A stretch of 59,857 nt of DNA, the filler included, from Sluysia triapertura (Eukaryota): NCBI GenBank assembly GCA_046118255.1. It is 4 parts of 4 records of this genome, joined end to end, with 100 filler letters (N's around TTAATTAATTAA, not from the genome) between each part and the next. Parts side by side here need not be neighbours in the genome. Positions count along the whole stretch, not along the records: positions 20,308 to 31,062 come from JBJNIA010193880.1; 3 more parts are not named here. One strand, given 5' to 3'. Below are positions 2,665-39,468 of the stretch, piece after piece. Position 1 is the first letter of the stretch. The number at the start of each line of letters is the position of its first letter. The position numbers were made by a program, and so were the translations under genes. The notes below the pieces were generated by a model. It worked only from the letters and a program-made list of their open reading frames with translations, ran no database searches and was not told where the DNA came from.

Positions 2665-2851
2665 AACAATTTTTCCACCATAAATTCGAAAAAACATGAA
2701 ATATCTAAGTTTTTTGGAAATTTCTGACCACCACACTAAGTAACACATGAAGCAAAACAGCCAGACCATAAATAAAAACCATCCGAACATACAGAAAATA
2801 TAGAATAATGTGCAACACCGATAAATAATTTCGTACAAGCTCAATCGAAAG
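2665..2851 (-). pseudogene. Possible decayed thrombospondin type-1-like exon
   Basis: Follows a tttcag acceptor; reads DGFYLWSGCFASCVT*CGG and, after a frameshift, YGGK, reminiscent of TSP1 (WxxWxxCSxTCGxG...YGGxxC). Confidence 0.3.
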
Positions 2852-6940: not shown

Positions 6941-8337
6941 CATCGCACTTAATGTAATATAAATTTATTCTGTCAAAACTCTATAAACTTCATTTCTCAC
7001 AATAATAATCATTGATCGATTTTTTTAATGACTACATTTAACAAATCAGATATTTTTATTAATAACATGGTATCAAAACTTAGTATAAAACATCATAATT
7101 TTACTAAATTTTTTTCGGCATTAAGTTTCCTTTTTAATAATGCTTTTATGCAGCACACACAAAACTCATAAGGTTTGCTCCAATGAAAGATGAAGTGACA
7201 AAACAATTCTAAATAATGCATTAAATATCACACCAAATAAGGTCCTAGATTAAATTATTTATTTACGACTTAATAAAAAGTTATGATTATTATTTTTATT
7301 ATTATTGTGAAAAATGACGATGATTTTGCAAATACGTTATTGTATTGTATAATTTTAAGGTTCTATGAAATATGAAATGTTTAAGTCCGTGGATGAAACT
7401 GTTAGACATATTTAACATTTAAATTAATGGTCAAAATAAAGACGAATGTTATATCTATCTGACATTCATAAAATTTAATTCAAACACCTAATCTAATCCG
7501 TAGACAGTAAGAGTGTTCATAAAAATGGTATAAGTAGGCAGCGTTGAGTTTAAAAAATCGGTTTCCAGCACACTGCAGTTTTACAAATTCGTAAACTAAA
7601 GGTTAATGCATCGTTGAACTGGTTTAATGAATAACATTAAGTGGTAAAATGAGAAATGTATAACGATCTAGTTGATTACTGTTAAGAATTTTGTTCGATT
7701 GTGTCAGTGTGCTTTAGTAAAATTAGACGTTGTGAATTGAGCAATCACAAAAACAATTTTCGTAAATAAATTAAATGAACCAATCATTTTTTGTCACTGC
7801 AGATGCACATATTAATGTTATTTAATATGTTAATTGGTACACATTGAATAATTTATCAAGATAATTAAGTCTTAATATTGGTGAATTTCAGACAATTTTA
7901 CAATTACCATTCAAAAAGAAATCCATTTCGAAGATATTCAATTAAAAATGAAAAATATTGCTAAAAATAGGAAAAGTTTTAAAACATTTGTGAAAACAAG
8001 ACATGAAAAATAAAGTTGCCGTCACAATGATAATGATAATAATAACAATAGAGAATTGTTATTGGTTGACGAAATAGGATAATATTTAAACTCATTTCTA
8101 TGCAATGATAATTAGAGTAATTAATAACTAGGGAAAACTTATCATAACTTTAGTTTAATTGAACAGTATTTTGATTTGCTAAAAGAACTTAAAATTACGT
8201 TAAAATAAACAACTACTTAAACTCGATTTACTGAGACATGTACACGCCTAAAACCATAGTCTTAAGTAAACAGAGTTTTAGATTCGTTATGCGCCTGACG
8301 TAATAACACAAATATAAATAAATATTTGATCACTAAC

Positions 8338-8640
8338 GCAGAATCTTGAACACGGAATGCTCAGTTATAATTTCTGTAACATTTATCATTTCTTCTCCAA
8401 ATATTAAATCTATGATCATATACGAACATCGCACAGTCTCAGTAAAAGTATCAAACTCTGTTACGTATAAAGAACCGTTTTGCAATACGATACCTTTTAG
8501 ATGAGGATCAACTTCGTAAAACGTTGATCCACTGACTGCATCTTGATTAACCACTAAGTTGCACATTAATAAAAATTCACTTTGATTTGTGAAACGGTAA
8601 ATCCATTCAAACACTGGTACAGCATCGTAAAACGTGACAA
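8338..8640 (-). CDS. Open phase-1/phase-1 exon encoding an Ig-like domain
   Basis: ttcag acceptor and gttagt donor, 303 nt open; FLLMCNL...VLQNGSLYV...TVRCSY (NGSLxI-type E strand, two Cys). Confidence 0.65.
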
Positions 8641-9309
8641 CTGAACAATAAGTGATACTACTGTTAAGATATTCTGTAAGACTTCGCGAATAGTTTTATT
8701 ATTATTATTATTTTTATTATTAATTTTATAATATTTAATTCATTATTAAAATTGTTATCGTCATCCTCATTGATAAAAATATGAAATGGGTGCTTAATGC
8801 AGGTAAAAAAATTTATTATTATTATTATTATTATTAGTGAAACTATAATCATAAAAGTAACAAGAGTATGCTTTATTAATTTTAAAAACATAAAAAGACG
8901 GCACAGCATGTCTTAGTTCATATAGCACGATTGAATAAGGATAAATAGAGATTTCATTTATTACGTTAAATTTACTACCTGCATTGTCCAAGAACAAAAT
9001 TAAATGCCTTCTAACTTCAGTAAAAGCATTAAATAGCATTTAAAAAGTCACTTAAAACATTCCACCCATTATCGAATAACATTAAAAACACAAGTTCACA
9101 ATTCCTTAATGCTCATTTATTTAGATAACTTCAAAAATGTCAAGAAATATTAAAGAATATAAGGAAAGTTCGTGTTAAGTAATCTAAAGACTTTATGAAT
9201 TTATAACAATAATAATAATGAAAACATTGTTATTATTATTATTATTATCATTTTTATTTTTAATTATTTTCAACTTTTAATTTTAATTTTATCATATGAC
9301 CAGAAATTA

Positions 9310-10039: not shown

Positions 10040-10336
10040 ATGAGATTAAATACTGACAACTATATCAATATATTTTCTCAATATTATTCGATTTTAAAAG
10101 CGAAAAGATCAAATGAAAATTTAAAAGGCATACACTTTTATAAATTTATGATGACAATTTGTACAGAATTATTGGAAAACAATAAAGATAAATTTGAGAT
10201 GGTTCAAGGGATGTTGAGTTTCCGAGTGGAAGCAGGTGTGGAGCTCGCACCGATAATGCTTATGGCCGATATACGAGTTAAAGTGGATAATCTATCAAAC
10301 ACAAATATCATCAAATTGTTTATTCAAGATCAATGA
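10040..10336 (+). CDS. Unknown ORF, probably the frameshifted upstream part of the CCCH gene
   Basis: 98 aa open; its stop overlaps the next ATG (ATGA); degenerate coding-like sequence extends back to about 9660. Confidence 0.4.
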   Translation: MRLNTDNYINIFSQYYSILKAKRSNENLKGIHFYKFMMTICTELLENNKDKFEMVQGMLSFRVEAGVELAPIMLMADIRVKVDNLSNTNIIKLFIQDQ

Positions 10337-10917
10337 GTACAGGCCTAAATTTAATTTCAAATAAAGTTCTGCGGTTAAATATATCCCAGTTAAGTATTGA
10401 ATATAAAGAAAAATGTAAAGAAGATTCTAAAATACTTTCTGTTTATCATTGTACTGTTCCTTTTAAATGTCGTTATTTTTGCCATATATCCAAGAATGTA
10501 ATGTACCTTCCATCGGTTCCTGGCCATTCAATGTTTCATAAATATTTCAATAATGCATTAAGTTCAAGTCAACGTATTAGAACAGCACTTTGCCCATATA
10601 CTAGTGACATAAATGATAGATGCATAAAATTCGGAGTTAATTGCGTATACGCGCACGCTGTTAATCAGTTATCAAATCATAAATTCAATTATATGTCTAA
10701 CATAGATCATGTGGTTAGAATTACAAATCTACTCGAATGTATAGGAATATCAGCTTCAGAAATATTCGGCAACGTTGGATCTATGGCTAATCACACAGTA
10801 AATAAATTCTATATTTACACAAATCCTAATTTAATGAAAAGTACCACACAGAGAATTATCTACTTTAACATTCAAAAATTTAAATTTTATATGTCAAATA
10901 AAAATTTTAGTGTTTAA
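10333..10917 (+). CDS. CCCH zinc-finger protein (TTP/ZFP36-like lead-in), intronless, possibly partly decayed
   Basis: RIRTALC-x9-C-x6-C-x3-H (CPYTSDINDRCIKFGVNCVYAHAVNQL) resembles RYKTELC...CQFAHGxxEL; a second Cys/His cluster CKEDSKILSVYHCTVPFKCRYFCH lies upstream; 194 aa open. Confidence 0.65.
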   Translation: MSTGLNLISNKVLRLNISQLSIEYKEKCKEDSKILSVYHCTVPFKCRYFCHISKNVMYLPSVPGHSMFHKYFNNALSSSQRIRTALCPYTSDINDRCIKFGVNCVYAHAVNQLSNHKFNYMSNIDHVVRITNLLECIGISASEIFGNVGSMANHTVNKFYIYTNPNLMKSTTQRIIYFNIQKFKFYMSNKNFSV

Positions 10918-12827: not shown

Positions 12828-14065
12828 CTTGAATTATAAAATTTAATTTAAATTCTTAATTCAGTTATAGTAAATTATAAAATTTTAGAGATTAAAATGA
12901 TTAAAATAAATAAATTTTTTATTCATTTTGTTCCAAATTTGAAATTTTTACTACTTGTTTACGAATTTAAATTTACGAATTTATATTAACTAAGTCCTTC
13001 AAAACTTGCTTTACAATATTTTGATATAATTCAATTGAAGTACCACGAGCAGTAGGCTCGCTTCTTTTGAATAAATTAATTTTATGCTGCATCTTTAAAT
13101 TTAGATACTATCTAATGATAGAGAGTAATGACTTCATGTTTTTTTAAAAGGAATTACATTAACTCAAATTTTACCTTTTTCATTTTTTTAGCGAAAAATT
13201 CAGAAATGCCATAAAATTGACAGTATTTATCGTACATGAATATTATGCATCAATAATATAAAATTGAAAACATAGATTAAATTAAATAGATAAATTATGT
13301 TGCAAGAGAATATTGATAAGCAAGATTATAATTCAAAATCATGACAGTAATTTACAAATGCTTACATTACGGAAGTCTTGAATATTTTTTTAGAAATAAT
13401 AAAGAAATTTGAAACCAAGATGAATATTTCATTGAGACAATAATAATCTATACAGAATCCACATTGATAATAAGCTAGATGATAGGTTGTATACCGTTTA
13501 TGTTTCAAAATATACAATCAGAATGTCAAATTACTGGAATATTATGAAATATTTAAGAAAAAGACAAAGTTGTTTCTGTTTCAGAAATATTATAGTGATA
13601 TTATAGTAATATTATAGTACTTACTTTGCAGTAGATATGAGCGCAATATAANNNNNNNNNNNNNNNNNNNNNNNNNNNNNNNNNNNNNNNNNNNNNNNNN
13701 NNNNNNNNNNNNNNNNNNNNNNNNNNNNNNNNNNNNNNNNNNNNNNNNNNNNNNNNNNNNNNNNNNNNNNNNNNNNNNNNNTTAAACATAATACTCATTT
13801 TTACTATTAACATTTTGTAAATAAATAATGTTCATTATAAACTCATTTATTTAATGATATAATGAAATAAATGTTGAAATCATTATTATTCATCTTAAAA
13901 TATTAATGCTTAAAAAATTACAAAGATTATAATGCCTTAGTATCAATTTAAAATGAGATTACATATAATTAATATAAATTTAAAATTTAATAACTTTTTC
14001 ACACAAAATTATACACTAAAATCGATAAATTGATTCATTGTAAATTGAAGTAAACGTCGGAAATA

Positions 14066-14720
14066 TTAGATTGGTGCATAAATTCGTGCGGTTTTATTTG
14101 TAGCAAAGAAAGCACACCAACTTCTTGTTTTAACTGATTTCAGTTATATTCATTCAGTTGAATTATATCTATTTAAATCATTTTAGACTAACTTTCACTT
14201 TCATTACCCTCATTTAAATGGAGTGTCAGGTAGATAAAAATGAACATTTTTGGTATCTACTCCTTTTCTATTTTAATCAACATTTAAACGCTGCACAAGC
14301 CAATAATTTTACAGCATGACAATGCTCGGTCTCATGTTGCCACAATGACAAAGTTGGCTTTTGAAGAGCGTGGCTGAGAATTCCTCCCAATACCCCGTAT
14401 TCGCTCGACTTGGCATAGCCCCAACAGATTTTCATCTTCTCCGCTCCATGTCGAACCATTTTTGTGGTCTCACATTTGAAAATGAAGAAACAATAACAAC
14501 GTGGATTGAAGAACTATTCGACCAAAAATCACCAAGTTTCTTCAAACGTAGGATTGACAAACAGCCAGAACGGTGGAAGGAAGTGATCGATTGTGGCGGA
14601 TAATATCTCACCGATTGAGACTGAGATATTTGTATTTTCTAATGATTTAATAAATTCATTTTTGCATGGTTTTCATTCTTGATCAATATGTATTGTTTTC
14701 ATAATTGTAAAAAACCACTA
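14066..14720 (+). mobile_element. Internally deleted mariner element
   Basis: TA followed by TIR TTAGATTGGTGCATAAATTCGTGCGGTTTT; MECQVDKNEHFWYLLLFYFNQ, LQHDNARSH, IAPTDFHLLRSMSNH, RWKEVIDCGG. Confidence 0.92.
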
Positions 14721-14948
14721 AAAAACGATAATCGATTATTTGTAATATCCTTTAGTTGTTATAGAATTGAATTTTAAAAGCTATTTCTTAAGAAAACTTA
14801 AGACGGAAACGTAATTTTGACGTATAAGTAATGCACAAAATAAGTAGTTAAATTTATTTGCTTTGATGTCACACAATTGCCAAAATTAAGAGAGAGATAA
14901 TTTAAAATTAGAGCAATAATTTTCATTTTAATAACAACTAACGTTTAC

Positions 14949-15212
14949 ACCATAAAGTTGTTATGCCGGAACTAAATTCTCGTAATCGACACTGAACACG
15001 GTAATAAGTGTTTTGGTGACATTTGGGATTACTATAAAATGCACGATTATTTGAAACCCTATCAAGTTCGTAATTAGTAGATGTGATTTCATATCCAAAC
15101 ATTAAAGCATTAATTTCAAAGTCAATAGGAAAATGTTGACAAAAAATTTTTATTGATTGTTCCATGTAAAATTCATTATTAGTTGGATATACTACAAATT
15201 TGACTTGAGTAT
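14949..15212 (-). CDS. Open phase-1/phase-1 exon, Ig-like domain
   Basis: ttccag acceptor and gtaaac donor, 264 nt; TQVKFVVYPTNNEFYMEQSIKIFC...YRVQCRL. Confidence 0.6.
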
Positions 15213-15307
15213 CTGGAAAATTTTGATGTTAATGTAAGAATACAATATTAATATGTATACCGTTATTTTGTAGTACTTAAATATTATTCCAGTACCCATA
15301 TGAATTG

Positions 15308-15308
<1 letters not shown>

Positions 15309-15378
<70 letters not shown>
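15309..15378. repeat. (AAT)n directly abutting (ATT)n: self-complementary microsatellite
   Basis: Read directly from the sequence. Confidence 0.9.
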
Positions 15379-15614
15379 GTGATGGCGACCTTGAATAAAT
15401 TTTGAAGTACAAAAATTCTTATTCACTTAATTAATTTAATTTAAAAGTATTAAATGAAATAATTTCAGATGAAAATAGTATTTTCAGAAGTCACACATTT
15501 GATAAAAGGTATTGAAAACGATTTTCTTTATCTTTAATCTAGGGAAAAATAAATTGTTAGCAGAGTTGGGTTAGAGTAAACAACTTTTTAAATAAAGTGG
15601 GCGTTCTGTAACTA

Positions 15615-16060
15615 CAGTGGTGGCCAAATTATTAGATTAAAACAAGAAAAATATGAAAAGTGGTCGTTTGTAAAGAAAACATCAGCGAGAAATGATAGAT
15701 ATTTGGTGAAACTTTCCACCAGCATGACTTTGCTGAAACAGTAAGAGACTAGCGGAATTCACGTTAGTCCAGAACAGTCAGGACAATGATTTGCCAGATA
15801 GACGACCCAGAAAAAAGCTTAGGTTGGCATGGTTTAAGGAAGACCAACATTTAACTGAGGATGACTGGAGTCAAGTGTGTTTTAGTGACGAGTCGTCCTT
15901 TCAAGTACTGAATGGCAAGACCACTTTTACAAAGAGACTTAATGAGGAGTTTGTTCATAGAAACTGTGAAACATCCAACTTTTGATTAATAGCTTCCTAG
16001 TATCCTTGAAAAATGTTAAATTTTATCAAAAAAATGGTTGCATTTATCTAATAATTTGTC
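15615..16060 (+). mobile_element. Deleted Tc1-like element
   Basis: TA followed by CAGTGGTGGCCAAATTATTAGA TIR; RKTSARNDRYLVK and RLAWFKEDQHLTEDDWSQVCFSDES (first D); partial right TIR TCTAATAATTTGTC near 16046. Confidence 0.88.
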
Positions 16061-16399
16061 TAATAGGCAAATCCTTACGCGCAGTTTACTTATTTCTTAT
16101 ATTTTTTGAGCACTTAATTATTATTTGCTGACTTTTTCTACTAAAAATTATAGTATAAAAATGATTAAAGAAGCTTTTGGATTTATTATTAATACTACAA
16201 TTCCGTCGTACTTTATCAATAATCCACAACAATTTAATCAAAAAACACAACTGTCGTGAATATTTATTATAAAATACAAAATTAATATACACAAAAGAAT
16301 ACCAAGAATTAGCAGAAAGCATAAAATAATAATAAAATATATTTTGAAATTAAAGCATTTTTTGAGCTTTTAATTCGTTATTTGTAATATTTTGGTTCC

Positions 16400-17194
16400 G
16401 ATTTTACTCCTCAATAAATCGGATAGTAAACAGTTTACAAACGAAATTTTAAGTATATTTTGAAATTTGCATTCAATGAGTGAAATCGTCTTGATAATAA
16501 AGGAAAACTTACTAATTTTTTAAAAATAATATCAATCTAAATCCGGCAAAATATGATTAAATTAAATTGTGAGTGTGAATATAAACAAGTCATCAACCAA
16601 TCAAAATCAGTGGAAATTTTATAATTTATAATTTATCTGTAATTGCTCATATTAATCCTTATCAGAAGATTAGTCAACCGGACATAATTAATTTAACTTA
16701 TCACACAGAGAGATGATGTGTATCTTTCCGGGATGAAATTAATGAGACAAGTTGACGTTCATTAAATTTTAAATAATACTAATGCGAGTTACGGTGCTTA
16801 TTTTTTAACTTCAATTCGAAAACCTTTACATTAGAATTGATTAAACGAATAACAGTTGGTTTTTTAAATGTGAAATTTTTATATTTTATTATGTTATCAT
16901 CACAGCCCTCTAAAATCATATAAAATGTTTTAAAATTATTTATAAATCTTTAAAATCACTTAAAAAATAAATACTATCCAAAAAAGAAAATTAACTTCTA
17001 AAAATAGAATAAAAACTTCTAGAAGGTTGTAGAACATTCTATCGATTCCTATTGGCTGATGAATAGTATATCAAAACCAGATTTTTTAAAGGTAATACTA
17101 ATTTTAATTAAGAAAGTTAGTATTATAAAATCAATGTAAAATCTATTTTTTAAAATAAAAAATTAAGTTTCCCCGATTTATTGAGGGTAAAATC
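16400..17194. mobile_element. About 800-bp non-autonomous element with long imperfect TIRs (foldback/MULE-like)
   Basis: GATTTTACTCCTCAATAAATCGG (16400) versus CCGATTTATTGAGGGTAAAATC (17173); inner inverted pair CATCAACCAATC (about 16591) and ATTGGCTGATG (about 17051); partial copies at about 29610-29730 and 43570. Confidence 0.65.
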
Positions 17195-20136
17195 CAAGTA
17201 ATATAATTTATTAACACATTTAAAGGCTATTACAGCTTTAATTATTTCTTCCACCACCATTACTCTTTATTTTAAATATCAATACTTGTGAAATTGTTAT
17301 TAGATTTTGTTTAATAAAGTTTTTGAATTTGTAGTCTTAGCTTTGTTAGGTACAAATCACAGGAACGCTCACTATAATACTCTTGCTTTAACCAGACCCT
17401 GCTCAAAAACATTTTTCCGTAGATAAAACCACAGCATTTTTGAGCTCAGTAATTATAATTGATTTTTAAGAGTACTTTTTATATAACAATATATTTATAG
17501 AGAATACATTTACTTACCAATACTAAAAATATACTAACATCTGGCTTTATAACATCGTTTTTCTTCATTTCTTCCGTCAGTACAAGATACACAAAATGCC
17601 GGATCACATATTGGCCCTACTGTCACATCATTGTCTAAAGACTTGTTATGTTTCTTTGGTAGATCATTAAAGTAAGGATTTTTACTACCACCACTACGAA
17701 GAATACAAAGTAATCTTATAGATATATTGCATAAATAATGAGCTGTATCCGGGAGAATGATTGAATGGGAAGGTGAATCTAAATATGAGTACAACCTATG
17801 TCAAAAGTGCACTTTCTGAAAACATTTACAATAGCATATTGTTCATACTCTTCGATTTACATATTTATAATTTTACTGTGAATCATATGAAATTTCTTAG
17901 ATATATTTAATGAAAAAATTTACTTTTATGTTCAATCGTAAACATAAACCAGGGCAACAATTAGAATAAGAGAACAAACAGTAGAATAAATGTAAATCAA
18001 TTAGATGCAACTGAGCAAACTGAAGGACTGTAGGAATGAATTTATATTAAAAATTTTAACAAAGCCATTTTTATGGTGATTATTTCTGAGAATATTATTA
18101 ATTCCCATATGGAATTAAATAATAATTTCCATTAATAGCTATATTATTGTTAATATCATTATTGTTAATAAAGTTTCTTAAGCTTTCAGTTTTAAAATGG
18201 ACCACACATAATTGAATTTTGATTATAATTCTTATTATGAGTATCATCTCCCAAATTTGGTCATATATTCGGATCTTGATTCGAAATATTGATGAATAAA
18301 CTTTAATGATGAATAAACTGTTTAACTTCACTCATTTTAGGATACACAGTAATCAATTAAGTAACATTTGTTTAATTTCTAGTTACCATAAATATTTTTG
18401 TAGAAATTTCATCAGCTGTAGCAGTAACATATTCCCTTTGACATCATCTGAACCATGTGGTTTTTTTTGTTATATCGTTTTTAATTTTCGTTAATCGAAC
18501 TTAAACAAATATGAAGCCATTTAATAAAATCAGAAGAAATAAACAACAATCTCAACATAAAGTTAATGAAAATTTAAAAATATACTTTATATTATATAAA
18601 TGAAATATTGAATAGAAAAATAAAGCAAACCATTTAAAATAAATTAAATGGAAAATAAAATTAATACTAACATAAATAAAAACTTTCTATCATTATAAAT
18701 AATATGGATATCATAAATCAATATTAAAATTATATTCTTTAATTTTTGTAAAATTAATTTTGCATATTTTTGAGATTTTTGGTGATTGAAATAAGTTTAT
18801 ACTTGGGATTATTATGTATGTATAATAATATCAAAATGAATATTTATAAAGAGTTTACTATGCTAAATTTAATAATATAATTTTGACAATATTAAAATAA
18901 ATCTGGATAATTTAGTTTATATAATGGCAATTTTTAAAAAATATCTCTTAAATCACTTCAGAATATAATGAATTTCATCGGCTTTCAAAATCAATTATTT
19001 GTTCATTTTTATGTTTATTGTTGATTAGACTATACCGTTAGATTTTACAAATTAATTTTATTCTAAATTACATCTCGAAAAATATGAAGAAATATATCTT
19101 AATCAAAATATGAAATCCAAAAAGTAATTCATCAAAATATTAACAAAAAATGAAAATTTTAAATTAATAAGATAAAAAACAAACTTACGGTGCCCTCTGA
19201 GTGGTTTTTCTAACACTTAACCAACCGCAAAATATTTTTGAGTAGGGTCCAGTTACAGTAAACACGTCTTATGTCGTGAAGAGGGTGTTTCTTAATTAGA
19301 GTCTTATTAAATGCTCACTTATAAAAATTGTTCTGCTTACATAATCTTTAATAAAAAATTAATTACCAATAAATTCACAAAGAATTATATTTAAAAAAGA
19401 ATTCAAATAATAAACTATACAATTAAATAACACTAAGAAAGATAGATTACTGGAACAAAAATCAAAATTGAATATTGCTAGTGTTTTTCTTTTACTTAGC
19501 AAATTGTAATTACCAATGAAGGTTCGCCTACGATACATCTAAGAAGACGTACCCGCATTTATAAACTCGAGGTTATATTTGGGAAAAGTTATTATTGTAA
19601 TACTTGCATCTTGGCCTTATGTTATACGACGGTATTTCTTATTTAAGAGATTTATCAATGCAGTAAATTCTCTGAGGGTTTCTTCGTTAATTAGTCTACA
19701 TAAGATGGTTTATATTCTATCTACCTAAACACCAATAAAAATTATACTTGTAAATAAGTATGTTGTAGGATCAATGCTATCTTTATTTTAAGGAATTTGA
19801 TTCTTTTTCAAGATGAGTCATTTCTCTCTAGATTTTATTTTATTTAGGCATCAATGAACTTTAAATAAATGTGAACTATCAGTAAATATGTTTTTTTTCT
19901 ATAAATTCTATTCATCCTTAATTAATTGTTAATTTTAGTAAACTTCTTTTATTTAATTGTCTGAATTTAATTAATATAGGTAAATTGAATATCTCTGTAA
20001 TTCCTTCGTATCCTCCGTAGACAATGTTTTATAAATAATCTCATTAATTAAATTAAATTAATTTATTACATCGTTTTACTGTTGTTTTATTTGAATTAGA
20101 ACGCTAAATGTTAGATTTCTTGACATTCTTATAATT

Positions 20137-20207
<71 letters not shown>

Positions 20208-20307
20208 NNNNNNNNNNNNNNNNNNNNNNNNNNNNNNNNNNNNNNNNNNNNTTAATTAATTAANNNNNNNNNNNNNNNNNNNNNNNNNNNNNNNNNNNNN
20301 NNNNNNN
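20208..20307. other. Artificial contig-join spacer
   Basis: 44 N + TTAATTAATTAA (stops in all six frames) + 44 N. Confidence 0.97.
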
Positions 20308-21292
20308 TTTATTTATTTTAAAAATTTCCGAACCCTTCACCATTTTTAAATGTAATTTAAAATCTTAATCTAAAATATTTTCCAAACTTTTAAAATAAAT
20401 TATTCTTAAGATTTTTAAATTCAATTATTATCATTAAGATTATAATGCTTTTACATTACTTTAAAATGAGATTCAATGGAATTAATATAAAATTAAAATT
20501 TAATAACAAATATTAACCAATATAAATTGCAACCAGATAAAACCATTATTTTAAAATAAGATTCTATAATGACAATATGAAATCAAATTTTGAGAACATA
20601 AAATCCAAGTAAAATTATTAATACATAAGTTAAAATTATATTAAACTGAGATTGAATAACATTAGTATGTAATTAAAAATTAACATTATCCTCAATCAAA
20701 ATTAACTTAAATTAAAGAATAGGCAGAGTAAGAGAATAATGTGATGTCAAATTTAAAAGCATCATAATTATCTTAAAATAAGAATGAATATTAATTATAT
20801 GTAATCAAAATTTAATAGTGTTGAATAGGATAAAATTTAATAACTGTAAAACTAATTGTATATTCAAGAGAAATACTATTTTTATGCATTGCTATTGATT
20901 TATCATATACTAACTAATATTACTCATTGTATCTGCTACCACTATTGTTGCTACTGCTATTTAATTATTGTGTATAATCTACCGTATATATCAATCGCTA
21001 TATTGAATTTATTATATACTACTAATAAAAATTAAATTATATAATAAAAATTTTCACAAAGAACAGTATAAATATCGCTGCAGTATAAACGTCGGAACCA
21101 CATGATCAAATTCAAGCTACCAACTATCAAAGGAGGTTTTAAATTCATCGTGGAGCGATATATTATTGTCAATTCATTAACATCAACGTTGACTTATTGA
21201 CTTATTAATGATACGACTCTGAAACATTTGTAGTACACGCCAATAGATGTAAGATGGCACCAAGTTAAGAAGTTAAAAAGTCATTATTAAAA

Positions 21293-21880
21293 GTGAAACC
21301 GAAAATAAAAGATCGCGACAAACCACCTTCAGTCCAATCGTCGGTTGACAAGCAAATATTAATGATGTTAAATGTTTCAACTGGTGTACGAACACACATT
21401 TTTCAAAATGTGCGTTTCAATGGTAGATGGATTCGAGCCGTTATTGATACAGGAGCCACTACATCCGTAATACACTATAATATTTTGACCACATGAATTT
21501 GGATCCGCAAAATGCAACAATTTATAACGTAGAACAAACACCAACACATGAACGATATAATGCATGGGCACTTAGACATATTGGATCAACGAGTAAATGT
21601 ATATATACACGTATGAGGAGATTCTCATTTTGATCTAATAATTGGTTTAGACATAATTGATAAATTGGACGATATAGTAATACGTAGTAAATATGGTTTT
21701 ATAAAATTTCCACAAGGAGCACAGATGATAATACCTCAGATTGTCATTCCGCACATCGGTGACGAAATTACCTTATACGAAACTCCAATTCATAATCTAC
21801 TGGCACAGTACTGCTACCTGATCGACTATCTGATATGTTATGGGACAACTCATCTATTATTTAATCATTGTCATCTGTAA
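21293..21880 (+). pseudogene. Retropepsin (retroviral-type aspartic protease) ORF with three in-frame stops
   Basis: Single frame: NGRWIRAVIDTGATTSVI (catalytic DTG at 21446)...GDSHFDLIIGLDIIDKL (ILGxD motif). Confidence 0.85.
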
Positions 21881-22432
21881 CGAGCGAATTTTCGGAATCA
21901 GGAATTGGCTCTTGACAAAGTAATGCTTACATTTACTAAGGCGAATAATCATAAGAAATCACGATGGACGACATTACCAATATTACTAGTTTTATTCCTA
22001 TCTCTAATTAATTTTGTTAAATCTATAGATATTGAATAAGTTGAGGAATATAGAAACTAATAAATAATAATGGAAAATAACAAAAAACATCAATCACTAA
22101 CATTTATAATTAGTATTGGGAAATAAAATTTAGTTCGAAGAAAATGTTTTTGCGACTTAAATTTGATATATATTGCATTTATCTAGAGCCGTTACTAGTT
22201 GGTAAACCGCACCATGTAGATAAGACTCCGCATAGTTTACAATACGCATTGGCATTGGACACAAAACGAAACACGAGGAAGGTGCAAAATATTACAAATA
22301 AATATGTGAATAATTGCACATCTGCATTCAAAAATAATAATAATCCATGAAACGATATATTGCCTAATGTTGTCACGTTAATATATAAACTAATTCCTAT
22401 TTCGGTAATTCTTATAGTAATATCCTCAATTT

Positions 22433-23160
22433 GTGATTGATTTTAGTAGAAAGATATGTGTATTCGCAGTTAACAAAAATCTGATACTATTAATGTTAAT
22501 TACCAGAGTACAGTGTAATACATACGATGTACAAATTTATAAAACCGAATATTTTGAATTTCGTAATTATGATACGGAAGTTAGAGTTAAAGTATTCAAA
22601 ATGACATTCAAGTTAGATTTATGTGTTTAAACCAGCTCGACTTAGCTTTAGTTCATAGAACGTACAGGAATATATTAATAATTGGTAAATCCCATTGTTC
22701 TATGTACTGATTTCTTGGCTAATGAAGAGCGACATATTATTGCTAGAATATTTGTTGCACCAGCAAAATTAGAACAATTGTATTTTCCATTAAAGGGAAC
22801 ACGGAAATATCTATCGTATCAGAAATGTTAAAAAATGATCCAGCTCTATTAATATTAGCAGCAATACTATTTATCATCACTTTATCAATAGTTATAGTAG
22901 TGAGTATTATGTTTGTTCAAACAGATGAAGATATTGGTGTTTACCTCCAAATAATGACGATAATCGGTATACCATAAATACATAGAAGTAATTATGAACT
23001 GCCACCATGATCTCCGTTAAGACCACCTCCTGTTTGTGAATATGCAACAGGCAACAATTCACCTTTAATGTACAGTGGTTGGCAAATGACAAGTTTACAG
23101 TGTGTCATGTTAGCATGGATGTGTATGACTTGTATAATTAATGTGCATACAAAATAAATA
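22433..23160 (+). pseudogene. Decayed intronless type-I membrane protein ORF
   Basis: Signal-like LILLMLITRVQC, an ectodomain, a frameshifted TM segment PALLILAAILFIITLSIVIVVSIMF, then a Tyr/Pro tail NYELPP*SPLRPPPVCEYA. Confidence 0.5.
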
Positions 23161-23553
23161 ATATTTAGACCATGGTCTACGCTTAAATCACTTCAGCGAA
23201 TTATATACGCAGAAATATTGTATTGTAGTTTTGTGATATTGATAATATCTCTATGAGTTGCTGTTTGACTAATACAAAATATTGGATAGCAGCTTGCGAT
23301 GGTCTTGTAGAAAATCAATTATTTAATATTGGTAGTGTTTTCTTAAACTTATTCACTGCAAATTATCTGAGAAGTCGCCTAATATATACGATTTACACCA
23401 CTAATTGGAGACGTACTATTAGGTTTTCTTAATTACATTTAACTTATGCCTTAGACTTATCTTTTATATTAATCGCTTGAAGTACTTAAATCAATTTATA
23501 TTGCAATTCTTTATTAGATATTGTTTAATTAAACTTTTATATTTTTATACTTA

Positions 23554-23825
23554 CGCAACCCGTATTAAGGTGTTGCTTTATCAAACAAATTTTAAATTAA
23601 TAAATAAGAAAGACACTTAAAATCCTTAATGTATATTAACACAACTAAAAGTCGAACGCTTACAAAAGTGACTTATAATAAAAATAAGATTTTAAATCAA
23701 CTACTCAATTGGCATTGTAGCTATCAAATATTTTAATAAGATTTTTCGCAACCCGTATTAAGGTGTTGCATTAAAAATAGGAATATTTTTAATGTATTTT
23801 GGGTTTCCTCTCTTAGAGTGAAACC
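23554..23825 (+). repeat. Two identical 23-nt hairpin units plus a GGTTTC/GAAACC hairpin
   Basis: CGCAACCCGTATTAAGGTGTTGC at 23554 and 23747; GGTTTC..GAAACC at 23802-23825. Confidence 0.85.
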
Positions 23826-23950
23826 ATAAAACTTATTAAAATAAAAATTACTTGTGGTACATGGAATTGAAAATATTAAACAAAATCTTCTGGAATTTTT
23901 TTTGTAATTGTTATGTTAAAAGCTTACCTATTTATATCTATTTAATCCAA

Positions 23951-24769
23951 TATGTCTTCCAATGAATTTAATTTGAAACGTTTAAACAAATTTAAATTTA
24001 TTAATTTGAAAAATAAATATTTAATAAAAAATTTGTATATTACATATTAGACATAAACATTTACATCGACAATATTACTTTAATTTTGGAAGTCGAATAC
24101 GAACCAAATCAAAATTCGAAAATTATATCAATACACAATTACAAAATTTGAAAAAAGCCTTATGTTTTTGATCAACTTTCGACGATTATCAAATTTCCGA
24201 TGCTATTTAAATAAAGAGAGTAATAATTTCGTTCGCATAACAAATCATTTAACAGAAAACACTATATTAATCGGTTACGAACTGGATACAGAAGATCATT
24301 ATGCACTAATACTCCTCAATGTTTCTTCATCTATCTTTTGTACCAGGACAACCTTACATTTATTGAGGTTTGGATTCTACGTTACAATGAAATTCACGAT
24401 ACACTGGGATTTTGGCCAGAATATAGAGTATGCGACTTAAGCGTACCAATTTTAGATAAATTGGATATTACTGCTACTTCAACACCAGTCATTACTACTA
24501 CTGCTACTTCAAATAAAGTAAATGTCACACATAATACTACGACTATAGGTTATTCTGTCAATATAGTTAAGAATTTAAGTGTACCGAATAAAAATCATTT
24601 ACAGGAAAATATAACAAATGACTTTATATTAAAACTTTATCATGTTATATTTAGTTACTACATTTTCACTTCGTTTCTTTTTCTTACAACAGCAGTACAT
24701 ACTATATTTCAGACTCATAAGTTCTACTTATTTATTAGGCATAGGAACCACTTGTTTATTAAAACTTAA
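23951..24769 (+). pseudogene. Frameshifted ORF for a membrane glycoprotein (Thr-rich stalk, C-terminal TM)
   Basis: Overlapping ORFs 24162-24440 and 24338-24769; TATSTPVITTTATS, sequons NVT/NTT/NLS/NIT, hydrophobic VIFSYYIFTSFLFLTTAV. Confidence 0.5.
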
Positions 24770-25779
24770 AAAATAAAGTATGAGTGATAATATCTTCTGT
24801 TCACTGACCATATGTGATGGATGTTAACTATCCATTTTTGGTCGCGAAGAGAGTGATGTTGGAACTCGTATTTTATAATTAGACTAATATTATTGTAGTA
24901 AACAATTTGTTCATTTATTCTAATATAATTAATTATTCATTTTTCTCACTTCTATAAACTTTCTGTGTATATAACATAATAAATTTTCTAAGTATTTATA
25001 TTAAGTATAATTATTAGCTTATTATTAGCTTATTTTTCTGTTCAGACAGACTTCGCCAACTTCGCTTCGTTTCACTGTACGGTCAATCTGTAGACGCTCT
25101 ATCCACAGATATTATGCTTTAACTATACCTTGTAGACAGATTTTATTTTAGTTGTCTTTATTTTTTGTTGGAAACATCCCCAACTCCTTTTCTTTCTTGC
25201 CCTATGAGCCGCACTACAATTAAGGAATTTGAAATTTACTACAAAAATATTTTTCACTGCTCATACGAATTTACCATTAAATATACTACACCAAGTTCTT
25301 CTATAATAACACAAAAACTCCACTATAGATATTTTCCAACCTGTTAATACAATAAAGGTTCATGTCTTATATAATGGATTTCGGCTGCCTAAATCTGATT
25401 ATCCACAGGGACGACAATTAAAAAAATTTTATAATAGACATTTATCTCAAGAAAGAAAAAATTATTGCTTCATAAAAAATTATTTAATTATAGTGCTATG
25501 ACACGTGAATAAAATTTTTGCTTCTTCTTTATTTTTTGTGTATTCTTTTTCCTTTTTAATTTCATTCTATTACCAGAATAACAGTTATCAAATCCCAATC
25601 AACAATACCAAATCCTCCAACGATTCATCCCAAAGCAAAACTAATTACCCAGATCAAATCTTTTTACATTTTACGTTTTACTATACAATTTTGTTCGACT
25701 CTCTAAACCTATTTTCTTTTCTGACTCCTTTTCAACTGATTGACAGTTGAAAAGTGAATTGACACAAAATATGAAGAAT

Positions 25780-26860
25780 CACCTCTTCCCACTAACCCTT
25801 GATTACCCATATGTGTATCTGCGTGGCTTATCCAACGCTCCCGATGAGTTCGACACCCTTTACATAGCGGTGATACGGGGTTGGTTAGAGTAACCCTTAC
25901 CGTCAACGACATTCCTCTTTTGTTGCAAATCGAGTGTCCCTTAACTCTTCATATTTCATCCCTGATTCGTTCCCCTCTTCTCTTGAAAAATTGTTTGCAA
26001 CAGATATTCCAAACTTTGTGCGTTGGAATAGTGGGACTTCTTTTACCAACGTTCCTATATTGTCCACTTTTGATTAGGACCGGATACTTTTCGTGGCATG
26101 TCACTGCCATCGATTTTAATAATGAACCGCAACTTGCGGGTATTGCTTTTACACTACTTAGCAAGCAATTTCATTCCGAGATACTTTCTGAGGGATACCC
26201 GATTGATTTCCTCTGAGGATTTTAAGAACGCTAAAGACATTGATAGCGTCAAATCCTATCTTTTTGGATTCTTTAAATGCCCGCTTTATTTTCCAAGCCT
26301 TAGATATCCATTTTGGCTGGATCATAAATCTTTCTATCCACAATCTCCTATCTTATACAACTACGGACGATTTCGCTAAGGCACGGCAAACGTTAAAAAT
26401 GTTGTATCCAGTTTGCCCCAATGTTGTATCCAGCTGTTGGCCACTGAAGAGCGGGATGCGACTTTTACTCCCCACTGTAAGAATCCAAGTATCCAACTAC
26501 CTTTTCTACTATTTCTTCTACTTTTCTTACTTCTCCCAAACCAGCAGACATCAACAATCCCGCATTTTCAGATATCATCATCCTCCCAGGAGTTCAATCG
26601 ACCTGCTCCAGTTCACCGAAAAAGAACTAGCACTTCTGCCTTACCACCAGTCACCGCTTCACGGTGTAAAACCAGCACGCCAGTATTATCATAATCACTC
26701 ACCACCTCATCGTACGACAATGACAATTGGTTTTGCTGTTCACCATCACGTCTCTTGCCTCCTCCATCCCGGCAACCGCGATCCGCATACGGTGCGTTTA
26801 CGGATTTCCCTTCCCCACCTGGACTTGATTTCGACGACGTGGCTTTGGATTTTTAAATTG
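25780..26860 (+). pseudogene. GC-richer, intronless, multiply frameshifted coding remnant of unknown family
   Basis: Abrupt compositional shift; chained overlapping ORFs at 25881, 26098, 26240 and 26413 ending in a Ser/Thr/Pro-rich tail. Confidence 0.45.
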
Positions 26861-27580
26861 CGATTTGCGGACAAATCTTCCCTTGGGAGAAAATATTTGT
26901 TGAGTTTATACTAACATTTTAATAACAATTTAATAATGATGATCGCATATTAAATTAATTTGATTTAATTTCATGATATTTCATCAATTTTTTATTATTG
27001 ATTTAATTTATGTAAATTATTGACTTTAATTAACTTTTGATACTTTATTTATGTTTATTATAAAAAATGTACATTATCAATATTAATTCAATTATAAATT
27101 CAATTAAAATAATAGTGGAAATAAAAAATAAAAATATTTATTAAAATGAAAACAATATTTGTTTAACTAAATCAATTTATAAAAATGGAAACCATAATAA
27201 ATAAAACTACTATATAAATAATCGATTTTTGGAATTTATTTTCAATATAATATACCAGAAAAGTTACTTTGAAATTAATCTGCAAGGAAATAATTAAAAC
27301 AAAAATTGTATCAATTGTAGATTTCTTGGAATCGCACATAATTACATGCAGAAGTAACTATGTTTTAAAGTTTACTCTAAAACCCTAATTTTAATATAAT
27401 AGGGTTCTTAAAATTCCTGCCTAAAATCATTTTATTGATTCTATACAGTAACTGACTAGGTTAAATTTTTCTATGGCTAAGCATTCGGCTTAAGTCCCTA
27501 AAATGTTTATTGTAACATTTTTTGATGTATATTTTATTGAATAAATTATAATAACTCTAAATTTTAAAATCATTCATCTT

Positions 27581-27704
27581 GGCCAAACCGTAAAAGGGCT
27601 GGTTCAACATTTAAAATATAAAACTTATTATCAGACTGTAAAAAGGCTGACTTAACGCATAAACTATTTCATACTTTGTTAGACTGTAAAAAGGCTGACT
27701 TAAA
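27581..27704 (+). repeat. Three hairpin-forming repeats with an exact 48-nt period
   Basis: AAACCGTAAAAGGGCTGGTTCAAC (27585), AGACTGTAAAAAGGCTGACTTAAC (27633), AGACTGTAAAAAGGCTGACTTAAA (27681). Confidence 0.85.
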
Positions 27705-30700
27705 TTATAAACTTACGCAATCATAACGTTAATTTTTATAGTGGTTAACAGTTTAGAATAAGGGCAGCATACATTCACTACACAAGCACATAAATTTATT
27801 TTTCGTTTGCAAATCTTATTAGAATGTCGTCACTCAGATATAAAACGTGTCTAATTAGTCGCACTAACCTTCAGAAAATTTATTTTGATAGTTAGGTTTC
27901 TTTTAAGTTAAAACCACAGTATTATGATGCCTTATTCTTATAATAATTGTCAGAATTAATTTTTTGGACAATATAAGAAAATGTTAAAAAATATAATTTT
28001 AAATGTGACAAATTTCAAGATAATTGTATTGTTATATACATTAAGATTCAAGTTGTGGAATAAATTTTATAAAGTTAAAATTGCAAGCTTAAACGAAATA
28101 AAGACCTATTTAAGACACAAGTTTTTTTAAACACAAAACTATATATAAAAAATACGTTTAACAAAGTTGATTATAACAAAAAGTGATTATAAATATTATT
28201 TTATATTATTTTACTCAAAGGTTTGCCGCTGAATTCTCTTTCTTGTCAATTAAATCAAATATAATTAAGCTTCAATTCAAAAACCTTATATACTATTTGT
28301 AGTTATAAATTCCAATAGTATTTCCATAATTCCATAAGAGTTATTTCAATATTAATGTCAATTATATAGTTGATATTTATTTTAGTAATTCCAATTTTAC
28401 TATACTATAAATTTCAATAGGAATATACACATTCTATAGTTATTCTATAACTTATTTTATTCAATAAATTATTCTACACTGAATTTAATTTAATATAATA
28501 CCTTATGTAATAATTTGGTTTGTAGTTTTTATTTTTTATTTCTTTTAAATTTTTTATTATAAAAATTAATAAAACAAATTATTTATATAATATAAAAACA
28601 GAATATGACATTATGGTGTATCAGTTTTGATGAAAACAGATGAAAAACTGATTATTGTGTGATTATTTCCTTTTTAATTAGTTTTACATCATTGATGTGT
28701 AATGGATTCAATTATATCAGTATTTATCAGTGTAGTATATATTCCATTTAAAAGCAGAATTATAAATTTATTATTAAATATTGGTTATGAAATTTTAATG
28801 TAAAGTATAAAATCAAAATTTGCTTATTTTTTTAAGGAAATCTAAATGTTAAACATATGTTTATTTAATCATTACTATTTAGACTTTTCTAAAATGGAAA
28901 TATACAAAATAATTTTAAAAAACAAATTTAGAAACTTAGAAATCTTATCATTTTGTGCGATTGTGAGATTAAGATACTACAATGACTTGCATACAGATCA
29001 TATTGCAGTTTGAAACCACATTTTATCTGTACAATATTAATTATACTCTTGCTTTTGTACATCATTCATTATTCTATGTTAAGTTACTACATTAATAATG
29101 ATAAATATATAGGCTTTTCTTTTGAATTTCATAAATGCATCACAGCTTTTATAAATATCAGAATATTTCACCAATATAATATTCAGAATCTTAAACTTTT
29201 GACCCAATACCATAGCGATGTAAAAGTTGCATTTCTATTTGGGAAAAATTGAATGTAACATGCATCTCTCAAGTTTTTCCACATCGTTTTAGCTTATATT
29301 ATAAACTCAAGTACTGATTGATATAGCTTGTTAATATAGCCTAAATTATTCTAAAATATTGCCGTATGTACTGACACCATCGCATAATATAACAATACTC
29401 ACATCAAAATTGATTTAGACTAGTAAAAGTATGACAAATTATTACATCACAAGACATTTCGGATGTTTACGAAATATTTTTTTAATAATGCAAATAGTAA
29501 ATTTAATGCGATACCAATTTTAATGATACATCGTATATAAGAAGTTTTAATTATGAAATTTTGAAGTTTAAGGGTTAATTTGAGGACGTTTGTGTTAGTT
29601 TGTCATTGCAACCCTCTAAAATCATTTAAAATTGATATTTTCCAAAACAAACTTATTTTCTAAAAAAGAAAACTGATTTCTAAAAATACAAAAAGAAGCT
29701 TTTAGAATTCTATTCGTTTTGGATTGGCTGTTGGCTCATATAAATAAATGCAATTGAATCACAAAGACGCCATTGTTATATTACAATAATTTTAGTTGTA
29801 ATTTTAGGCACAATAATATTCATCAAGTCAAAATCTTAGCCATATTGGTTTTTCTTAAAATAGGTTACAGCAACTATTTGGAATAGCCGATAATAATATC
29901 GTTCACTTTTGGCACCATTAACCGGAATTTGTCCTCGCTATATTTGGTAGATGTTTATTTAAATAATATTTATTGAAATTAATTATTAGTAGATATTAAA
30001 ATTTACTATTAATGAAATTTTTTTATAAATTATATATTTCAAACTAGAATTAATAAAAAAAGAAAGTAGTAAAAACGCACTAAAAGACATTTATTAAACA
30101 TGTAAGCTAAATCTATAATAATTGTTCTTAAATACGCATGTGATGTTAGTTTATTACATATGATTTTAATAAAATAATGATATATTTCTGAATATCTTGA
30201 AAATCCGACTTTATAAGAACTAAAACAACAATCGACTTATAGGACTACATAATCTTTATAAAATTATAAGCTTTCTGTATTTTAAGTATTCGACCTCACT
30301 TCACTATTTTGCATTTCAATTCTCGGATCACAGGCGAATTCTTAAATTATTCAAAATCAATTGTGATTGTAGGCTTTTTCCTAGGAAACCACATCGGCAG
30401 AAATTAATGCAAATAAAATATTAATAAATTTAAGTCTAAATATTTATTTTATGGTAAATGTTAGCACTGATAAACTTTATGACAATGATAGTCGAAAAAT
30501 GATGAAATAAAAGTTTAGAGAAGGTTTTAGATCTAAGAGCTATTATCTAATTTTAAATGTATTTTTTATCTGTTAAGAGTGATTGGGTATACTTATGTAC
30601 TCATTACAACTATTGTATAATATTATTTGTTATAAAATTTACTCTTTTATAATTATTGTAATTAAGTATTGTAAATTTTCATTTTTTCATTCAGCTTTAC

Positions 30701-30821
30701 AATCAAATGTCAATATGTTTAACGCTTATTTGCGAGGAAAAAATTATTCTTACAAATCAGCTACTTCTAATGTTCTTCCTGGACATATCATTCATATTGT
30801 AGATTTTTCTACCCTAAAGTA

Positions 30822-30830
30822 TATTATTAC

Positions 30831-30887
<57 letters not shown>

Positions 30888-30974
30888 TATTATTATTACT
30901 ATTAATTGTGATATTTATTTTACTTGTACTTCTGTGTATTTACGTATTTATTTGTTTAAAAATATTTATTTTAA

Positions 30975-31021
<47 letters not shown>

Positions 31022-31036
31022 GTTACTATTATTATT
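30822..31036. repeat. Two (ATT)n microsatellite tracts
   Basis: Read directly from the sequence. Confidence 0.9.
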
Positions 31037-31062
31037 AAATTATTCAGATAATTATACATTTT

Positions 31063-37412: not shown

Positions 37413-37968
37413 AACACTAAATTTTAATCATCATATGATAAATCAAAGTAAAACTTTTTTTAAGTTTATTGTTCTGGGAGAATTTAAAATTTACTTAAAA
37501 TCAAATTGTTTATCTTAGACCTTAAAAGCTAAGTTAACTTGAATATAAAATCACTCCGCTAAAAAATTTAAGCGGTACAATCATTATTATTATTATTATT
37601 ATACTTAGTATTTTGTTCTTTGTTGTTTTCTAAGCAATTGTATAATCTTTGTTTTTAGTAAAAATTTATTACATAATTCTTACATTGTGCTATGTTAACA
37701 TTTAAATTTAATTCATATTTTGCTAGACTGGCTTAAAATACTAGTATACATTTAAATGATTAAAGTTATTGTTCTGTATAAATTGTGCATTCAATAGATG
37801 TCCCAGCTCACCAATTTATTAAGTATCTAAGCTATTACGTGACTAAATTTAAAATCCCAATAGGACGCCTTCTTCTTAGATTTAAGTCTTGCTTATTTAG
37901 CGAATTCACCTCCAGAATCATTTTGTAAGTGTAAGTTTAAGCTTTTATCGATAAAACACTTGCAATTA

Positions 37969-38460
37969 GGGGGACACCTGTCAACAAGTAAAATATTATC
38001 TAGAGTTAAAAATAATATTATTGGGATAATATGGAGAAGACATTCAAAAGTGTTGAAAAATTGTACTACTTGTAGAAGAAAAATACAGGAATTAAAACAA
38101 AAGTACCACTAAAACCAATGTCTATACCATTTTCACCAATGAAATTTACTGCAATGGATATAATGGGACCATTGCCAGAAACTTTAAATGGAAATAAATA
38201 TATAATATTAGTTGCTGATTATTTAACGAAATGGCCTGATACCAAATAAGAAAGCCGAAACTGTAGCGCAAATTCTAGCAGAAAAAATAATATACAGATA
38301 CGGAACTCCAAGAAAACCACTAACAGATCAAGGAACTAACTTTACTAGTGACGTAACAAAATCGGTTACAAAAATATTCAACATTTTAAAGATATTTACG
38401 TGACCATATCATCCTCAAACAGATGAATTAGTGGAACGATTTAATAGAACATTAATAAAT
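37969..38460 (+). mobile_element. Ty3/gypsy integrase fragment (HHCC zinc region plus rve core), frameshifted
   Basis: GGHLS, YYWDNM, CTTC, TAMDIMGPLPETLNGNKYIILVADYLTKWP, RYGTPRKPLTDQGTNFTS, PYHPQTDELVERFNRTL. Confidence 0.95.
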
Positions 38461-39468
38461 AGTTCAATTACAAATGTAGATTAATTATAGTACATTAATA
38501 AATGTAACCCTATTATTTTAAGTGAATAATGCTAAATTGTTAAAAAATGAAACTAAATTTATTTATGATCATTCATTTTCGTAATTTTGTAAGGAAAACT
38601 AATTTTATGCAATTTATTTATATAAAACATTATTACTGGTTGAGCTAAATCTTATCTTCTAATATCTTTTATTGCATGTGAGATAAACATGTTTAGTAAT
38701 TATATTGCTGTGAAATAAGAAATTAGAGCTGTGACAAAAATGATCCATATTCTATCTCACCGTCACTGCATTCTATAATCTTATCAAGTACAACATTTAC
38801 AATTTTCAAAATGTCCTTAGATGTCCATAAATAAATCAAATTATAGGTCTTTAAATTCTAATATAATTTTCAAGAAATCAATTTAATTCGCACATTATGG
38901 TGCGTGTACATGTTTTGTGTTACACACCCAAACAGGACTTAACTAAAGAACTTTTGCGGTGAAGGAAACCGAAAATTAGAATATATAGAGAAGTAAGTTG
39001 ACAAAAACATATCATGTGTTTAAGCTTTTAAGAATATAAACACAATGCTTTTATGTCAGGAGACTTAAAATATTTTGTCATATATTTAAAGAATAAAATT
39101 TTTATATTTATTACTTTAGTTTCAAATTTAAAAACCACTAGAAAGAAATATGTTCATTCTTGAATAGGCGAAGTCTGAACATTGATAAATAAAGTTTAAT
39201 TAACTCTATTTATTATTGTAACATTAAATTGAAAAATTAAGCAACTCTTACCCACAATTTTAATATATTACAAACACGACGTTTTATTATTTAATGTGTC
39301 ATAATTTGTGCCCAACATAAATCAAAATGCACAGAAAATGATTCGTGTTTATCAAAATCAAAAGATTAAATATAAAACAACTTTGCCAATTACAATAAAG
39401 TTAATCCAAACTTTAGAAGACCAGGAATGTTAATTATTGTTATATCATCTGCAAATTTATTATAATAG

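Follow-up and report, generated by a model that had tools for sequence, protein, structure and literature searches.

We have identified what is probably the decayed 3′ tail of a giant Ty3/gypsy retroelement with a Burro-like GAG-ENV-POL polyprotein in the genome of Sluysia triapertura (GenBank assembly GCA_046118255.1), in which an extra protease would free the integrase from a predicted surface accessory protein. The stretch of DNA analysed, here called the window, comprises 59,857 nucleotides (nt) and is approximately 75% AT; the locus lies in the part that comes from record JBJNIA010193880.1 (positions 20308-31062). In a preliminary description, positions 21100-25175 (the cassette) had been presented as a virus-like arrangement of a stand-alone retropepsin followed by several decayed membrane-protein open reading frames (ORFs). 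The copy in the window is dead and lacks, or is cut off from, everything upstream of ~21050. It is classed as a fragment derived from a Ty3/gypsy element, not as a complete member, and its importance lies in the layout that it indicates.

The retropepsin was confirmed by Pfam, in which the frame starting at 20900 matched gag-asp_proteas (E 2.3e-5) and RVP (E 1.7e-4, above the RVP cut-off). Its catalytic Asp codon, in the motif DTG, lies at 21446 on the plus strand, within a broken domain at 21392-21700 that was also recovered by HMMER and tblastn. Stops interrupt the frame at 21266, 21494, 21530, 21614, 21878 and 22037, those at 21494, 21530 and 21614 falling inside the domain, the middle of which is probably frameshifted. 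The retropepsin does not stand alone, however. It is preceded in the same frame by the end of an integrase C-terminal domain (21218-21262, plus strand) bearing the motif H-x-N-R-C-K, whose His codon is at 21236 and which precedes the protease Asp by 70 codons. This motif is the best hmmsearch match of the window (E 4e-4), and its profile score of 51.9 compares with 21.2 ± 3.0 in 339 other pieces of the window (maximum 34.2; none as high) and with 22.1 ± 3.6 in 100 shuffles. When the profile was built from 13 relatives, the motif scored 51.4 against a maximum of 31.0 over 222 control pieces, none of which reached it. The residues H, N, R, C and K are invariant in all six aligned rows, and the profile score climbs from 34.6 to 54.8 bits once the integrase end is joined to the protease. 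As had been described, reverse transcriptase (RT) and RNase H are absent: at E<=0.05, neither these nor any further Pfam family was found in six frames of 20900-25300, and six frames of 14500-20200 contained no Pfam family, RT and RNase H included.

A word-based search of the window protease against proteins of 141-450 aa yielded no match among 263 candidates. A full HMMER scan of 1.84 billion representative proteins, using the protease frame with stops read as X, returned a single protein at E<=0.001. This protein, P0002 (E 8e-8), is a Ty3/gypsy polyprotein of 2855 amino acids (aa), in which a fusion glycoprotein (PF24664) and two proteases precede RT, RNase H and integrase, and a third protease and two hydrophobic segments follow. 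By tblastn, its residues 2255-2335, spanning the integrase end and the third protease, align to 21218-21490 of the window as a single segment (E 9e-7). Searches from the tail of P0002 found P0003-P0009, and five of 35 metagenome pattern matches were confirmed (L001-L005), giving 13 relatives in all. The signature [VI]-H-x-N-R-C occurs at the integrase end of all 13, and L002, L004 and L005 share the exact H-A-N-R-C-K of the window; in P0002-P0007 the motif is found once per protein, only behind the integrase. These six proteins and L002 display the order protease, RT, RNase H, integrase. A post-integrase protease is present in seven of the 13 relatives, as one copy in P0002, P0003, P0005, P0006 and P0007 and as two copies in P0008 and L001. 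Nine of the 13 continue in frame from the integrase into a signal-like segment and then an ectodomain, a Thr/Ser stalk, an anchor and a tail; L001 reaches its contig end after the signal, and P0005, P0008 and P0009 show no such membrane tail.

The spacing of these parts is similar in the window. Between the motif and the Asp are 70 residues in the window and 51-68 in six relatives, and between the Asp and the next hydrophobic segment are 175 residues in the window and 154-177 in four relatives. In the window this segment is signal-peptide-like (21971-22027, plus strand; Kyte-Doolittle hydropathy (KD) 2.05) and shares its frame with the motif and the Asp. By a criterion drawn from the relatives themselves, not from a paper, the window holds a clade-type integrase end with protease and hydrophobic segment spaced as in the relatives. 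The motif, the protease, their frame and their spacing are found in the window, and the same order is found in intact relatives. The puzzle of a protease that is not followed by RT accordingly dissolves: this is a post-integrase protease, intact relatives carry RT, RNase H and integrase upstream of it, and RT is missing from the cassette because it belongs upstream, where the window copy is cut off. The preliminary description had named intact copies with an ordinary gag-pol as evidence against its reading, and this came true by half, in that the relatives have a full gag-env-pol, not an ordinary one. Elsewhere in the window, a broken, isolated integrase fragment comprising the H2C2 region and core (37966-38480, plus strand) is not contiguous with the cassette. 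Its core is 59-69% identical to ten relatives, which indicates that the host harbours this clade.

The relatives also show what may surround such a tail. In six of them the fusion glycoprotein (PF24664) is placed after gag and ahead of pol, and L002 reads, in order, two CCHC motifs, a ubiquitin-like stretch (E 0.018), fusion glycoprotein, protease, RT, RNase H and integrase. Behind the polyprotein, L002-L005 each carry one or two further co-oriented ORFs (L002 12085-13470; L003 3712-5556; L004 2055-3389 and 3723-5873; L005 2684-6445), which comprise exonuclease-like ORFs (E 1e-3), an ORF with a RING finger and, C-terminally, a Cys/His motif, and ORFs with no assigned family; a row of accessory ORFs, as in the window, is thus normal for the clade. 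P0008 and L001 (3529-5727) have a C2H2-like finger between their two post-integrase proteases, and in P0008 the first of these proteases clusters (support 99/98) with the first pre-RT protease of P0002 and P0003, which suggests that a whole protease-finger-protease block was duplicated. The tail of L001 begins inside the integrase end and represents a second case of a tail cut off from its RT; just before it, a 606-aa ORF (1569-3386) resembles a hAT transposase. In a PDB sequence search with the relatives' tail ectodomain, 11 of 14 weak matches were proteins with fibronectin type III (FN3) domains, at a best E of 0.009. Atlas placed it as FN3-like at 0.89, which is a lead only, and Foldseek on a model with a predicted local distance difference test score (pLDDT) of 49 gave a best E of 0.33, with top rows that were mostly FN3.

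Co-oriented, heavily broken frames do follow the protease in the window, as first described, although the transmembrane segments ascribed to them are, with one exception, not above chance. Predicted membrane unit 1 (22030-22440, plus strand) spans two frames, with a decayed ectodomain and an anchor at 22369-22425, and no homologue was found; a RAMP match to it (E 0.004, far below the cut-off) was taken as chance, as was a UNC45 match. Predicted unit 2 (22454-23160, plus strand) has several breaks and consists of a signal-like segment (22454-22510), an ectodomain, a strong anchor (22846-22902) and a tail containing Pro and Tyr. A 67-aa frame (23229-23432, plus strand) has a C-x-x-L motif like that of the relatives' FN3-like units; the motif, at 23283, ranks fourth of 119,584 positions, beneath three background sites, and the frame scores 17.5 against a control maximum of 17.7, with an hhalign probability of 3%. 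The last decayed ORF (23952-24769, plus strand; two frames) is a predicted membrane glycoprotein. In its stalk, 46% of 28 residues are Thr or Ser; N-x-S/T occurs four times at 24521-24608, and the hydrophobic segment at 24644-24700 is weak, with a KD that peaks at only 1.5. A candidate kinship between 23160-23440 and 23950-24770, one of six pairs, scored 56 against a maximum of 54 in 60 shuffles, and no claim is made of it. The anchor at 22846 stands out among the hydrophobic segments (KD 3.34; background 0.06 per 1000), and it and the last ORF's Thr/Ser stalk with its N-x-S/T sites are the only features of the later frames above background. As for the structure prediction proposed earlier, a single-sequence model of 24084-24437 reached a pLDDT of 33.8 and told nothing about the fold, and Atlas gave no usable match for 24084-24377. 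No Pfam fusogen family was matched in the window units, whose ectodomains have ~110 residues, and since the fusion glycoprotein of six relatives sits between gag and pol, the membrane ORFs of the window are unlikely to be the fusogen. The Pfam families MATH, BIR, BCL2 and ankyrin, which are the cargo of the Schmidtea element Burro (longer than 30 kb), were likewise absent from the cassette.

The stretch belongs to a repeated family of many diverged copies in the sequencing run that holds it. From this one public run, possibly the window's own source, 5817 contigs matched the region, of which 4556 were <95% identical to it. Summed depth, which is no copy number, was 345-30,903 over 20310-24812, as against 18-24 for exactly matching contigs, and fell to 28-883 beyond 24813. 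Among the joints listed are 21723 to 21912 (protease to signal), 22418 to 22507 (unit 1 to unit 2; one contig), 23324 to 24071 (three contigs; 23324-23330 to 24071-24106), 24207 to 24353, and 24747 to 24805, and neighbouring parts therefore occur together in other copies. None of the pieces listed spans the whole stretch.

The hairpin cluster noted between the ORFs was borne out. It occupies 23554-23831 and is made up of a duplicated 23-nt stem-loop (23554 and 23747; the exact duplicate has an expectation of 0) and two further stems; the three adjacent stems at 23748-23831 have a z of -3.8, with one of 200 shuffles equally good. Many of the listed joints fall at 23551/23744, from which it follows that the number of hairpin units varies among other copies. 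Rfam gave no match at E<=1 on 20308-27400, the window contains no tRNA genes, and the hairpin word is absent from L001-L005 with up to five mismatches allowed. Upstream of the cassette, directly past an assembly gap (20208-20307), lies an AT-rich repeat (20454-20820) with a 90-bp period and four copies of a 55-nt core, the unit number of which varies among other copies according to the contig joints listed. A 70% copy of it at 13827-14044 continues into different DNA, and the repeat is on that account probably a separate one that replaces or hides the upstream part of the element. The front of the element has been lost, unless it lies on the far side of the gap.

At the downstream end, the preliminary description had read a purine tract abutting TGTT as a polypurine tract (PPT) and the start of a long terminal repeat (LTR). 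The sequence is indeed there, GAAGAGAGTGA being directly followed by TGTTGG at 24846-24862, but the PPT reading is probably mistaken, as tracts of 10 purines in 11 precede 17 TGT sites in the window, whereas a minus-strand tract with 20 purines of 22 (25177-25198) is the only such tract before TGTT in the window. The 320-bp TG...CA LTR at 24857-25176 would more likely belong to an antisense neighbour, making the earlier orientation wrong; it is probably the 3′ LTR (minus strand) of a different element inserted at the end of the cassette. Its AT skew on the plus strand is -0.22, skew and depth fit an antisense element at 25199-26900, and summed contig depth drops from 3639 to 203 at 24857. The neighbour itself (PPT and body, 25177-26900, minus strand) is decayed and purine-rich, with 38% GC in its body at 25199-26900, ends in the PPT and then the LTR, has no Pfam match, and shows a depth of 28-883. 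The check for paired LTRs found no partner for 24857-25176 within the window and no target-site duplication, which leaves a single LTR that is probably another element's; a 62% AT-rich match at 26875-27095, considered as a partner, does not align as an LTR. No plus-strand purine run of at least nine stands directly before TG in 21001-24900. At 24830-24856, near the end of the high depth, the DNA reads CCA-TTTT-TGG and then a purine-rich run, which has the shape of a plus-strand LTR end and primer-binding site.

Several observations weigh against reading the locus as the tail of a giant polyprotein. The significant integrase signal spans just 15 codons: the integrase core is absent from the cassette, and only the end of the C-terminal domain is significant there. 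A possible decayed front of that domain (21048-21217, plus strand; profile columns 3-24, best match 21048-21119) is weak, and 24 of 339 controls equal it, so it is not significant alone, though it lies near the expected place. The protease by itself does not single out the post-integrase copy (40.0, 38.9 and 34.6 bits for the first, second and third protease), and in the retropepsin phylogeny suggested earlier, which was run on 20 rows, the window row was not placed. Because the protease sequence cannot tell the three copies apart, its post-integrase assignment rests on position. The relatives were retrieved with motif-plus-protease queries, and the seven of 13 with a post-integrase protease are therefore a biased count and no estimate of frequency. 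Of the six without one, four or five have a full membrane tail, from which it follows that this protease is optional and that the pre-RT proteases could serve instead. The FN3-like character of the tail ectodomain is weakly indicated, and in the relatives only, the window giving no match. Hydrophobic segments are not enriched: the window has 1.48 stop-free 19-mers with KD>=2.0 per 1000 codons, and three (21971, 22369 and 22846) were seen where ~5-6 are expected in the three plus frames of the cassette. By profiles and hhalign, the membrane frames of the window match no tail unit of the relatives, and units 1, 2 and 4 bear no detectable likeness to each other. Among the contigs listed, from the single run with the limits given above, none ties the tail to RT or bridges 21050.

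We hypothesize that the element would be translated as a single very long polyprotein comprising Gag, fusogen, proteases, RT, RNase H, integrase, a further protease and the membrane tail. An integrase that works in the cytosol cannot remain attached to a segment that is inserted into the endoplasmic reticulum, and for that reason a protease copy at the junction of integrase and tail would, from established polyprotein biology, release the integrase in cis; signal peptidase would likely free the ectodomains. The tail protein would then reside at the surface of the cell or particle. It may act there as attachment partner of a gB-type fusogen or as a receptor mimic, a role to which we give even chances. 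The later ORFs of the window probably represent additional accessory genes of this element. A bolder proposal, which we regard as doubtful at present, is that the clade builds polyproteins with up to four retropepsins as movable self-release modules for cargo behind the integrase, together with an FN3-like glycoprotein that partners the gB-type fusogen as herpesvirus receptor-binding proteins do, and that the tail has, in this host, expanded to several surface proteins in a row and spread to very many copies.

Other explanations of the locus were considered. The tail might have spread as a unit of its own behind the AT-rich repeat (20310-21050), as a non-autonomous derivative lacking RT and mobilized by an autonomous partner. 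Summed depth is high on both sides of the junction bins, and a non-autonomous env-carrying derivative is known in rotifers in the portion of PMC5408684 available. We nonetheless consider this unlikely, given that different DNA follows the upstream repeat at its other copy, that paired LTRs and a target-site duplication were not found, and that nine contigs start to match at 21221 with upstream letters unlike the window, as expected if the fronts of other copies differ. Slightly less probable still is a patchwork in which the giant element contributed only 21200-22030, the later frames being unrelated repeats, fragments captured from the host, or hydrophobic frames that arose by chance in AT-rich DNA. 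The absence of homology between those frames and anything searched, the chance frequency of hydrophobic segments and a ~90-fold difference in depth between bins all suit a patchwork. It fits poorly with the listed joints that tie 22418 to 22507, 23324-23330 to 24071-24106 and 24207 to 24353, with the co-orientation of every frame on the A-rich plus strand, with tails and extra ORFs of this kind in the relatives, and with an anchor and a Thr/Ser stalk that are hard to obtain by chance.

The preliminary description had also left room for an endogenous virus without RT, which would carry a retropepsin and several envelope genes. Such a virus would account for the lack of RT in or near the cassette and for the several predicted membrane frames, but it is largely refuted and now very improbable: the protease shares its frame with an integrase-end motif, every relative found is a Ty3/gypsy element, none of 20 pattern matches in viral_contigs was confirmed, and the cassette contains no fusogen, capsid or polymerase family. 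What stands of that description is the remnant of a large retroelement, repeated and equipped with membrane and accessory genes, close to the giant gypsy elements of planarians.

The clearest host gene of the window is an innexin (57771-59085, minus strand; Pfam E 5e-59). There is a weak PTB-domain match at 8336-8695 (minus strand) and an intronless 208-aa frame at 10291-10914 (plus strand) with an Unkempt-like CCCH finger (E 3e-5). Sequences at ~14300-14560 and 15737-15985 (plus strand), which we take to be mariner and Tc1 transposase-like, had no Pfam match in long frames read through with X.

In ordinary Ty3/gypsy elements, the protease is followed by RT. The window protease shares with theirs the retropepsin fold family and DTG, and differs in order, as an integrase end precedes it. 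The same fold family and DTG are common to the host retropepsin DDI1, whereas neither a ubiquitin-like nor a UBA domain turned up around the window protease. Ty3/gypsy elements have been taken to have one protease before RT; the intact relatives carry two proteases ahead of RT and often one or two more behind the integrase, followed by an in-frame type I membrane protein. For annotation, an orphan protease followed by membrane ORFs in such genomes can be the rear of a giant element and not a new virus.

Giant gypsy elements of the GAG-ENV-POL type are already known. Burro (GYPSM1) of planarians, as described in the available part of PMC6431247, has a single vast polyprotein, in which env lies in frame after gag and before pol, and also has CCHC knuckles, a ubiquitin-like domain and accessory ORFs; in Dugesia japonica decaying Burro fragments carry stops and frameshifts. 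The order in L002 of two CCHC motifs, ubiquitin-like stretch, fusion glycoprotein, protease, RT, RNase H and integrase is the likeness to Burro, which is drawn by description, the window holding the tail only. That part of PMC6431247 gives Burro one protease, placed before RT, and does not mention a post-integrase protease or membrane tail. More broadly, a post-integrase protease or an in-frame FN3-like membrane tail was not found in the available portions of PMC6431247, PMC13524379, PMC5408684 and PMC11410931 or in the literature searched; Repbase, subscription journals and the primary Burro description may record such a layout. The GAG-ENV-POL errantiviruses of Platyhelminthes, Nematoda and Bryozoa, with an env of the HSV/gB kind (HSV, herpes simplex virus), share gene order and env type with the relatives in what is available of PMC13524379. 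A motif read by eye in the Schmidtea env rows there, [IV]YQE.D..R...EC, is present in all five of the env-bearing P0002, P0003, P0005, P0006 and P0007. In the accessible main text of that source, a chromodomain is the only post-integrase domain discussed, 'protease' appears once, in a figure legend, and 'fibronectin' does not appear. The same portion states that the entry of gB-carrying errantiviruses is unexplained, as the gB of herpesviruses depends on partner glycoproteins; the membrane protein behind the integrase is a testable candidate for such a gB partner, or for a host-receptor mimic. The bdelloid rotifer elements Juno, Vesta and TelKA, in the corresponding part of PMC5408684, have post-pol accessory ORFs that include small transmembrane proteins and DEDDy exonucleases, comparable with the exonuclease-like ORFs of L002 and L003. 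Their ORF3 is separate, whereas in the relatives described here the membrane tail continues the integrase frame and can carry its own protease.

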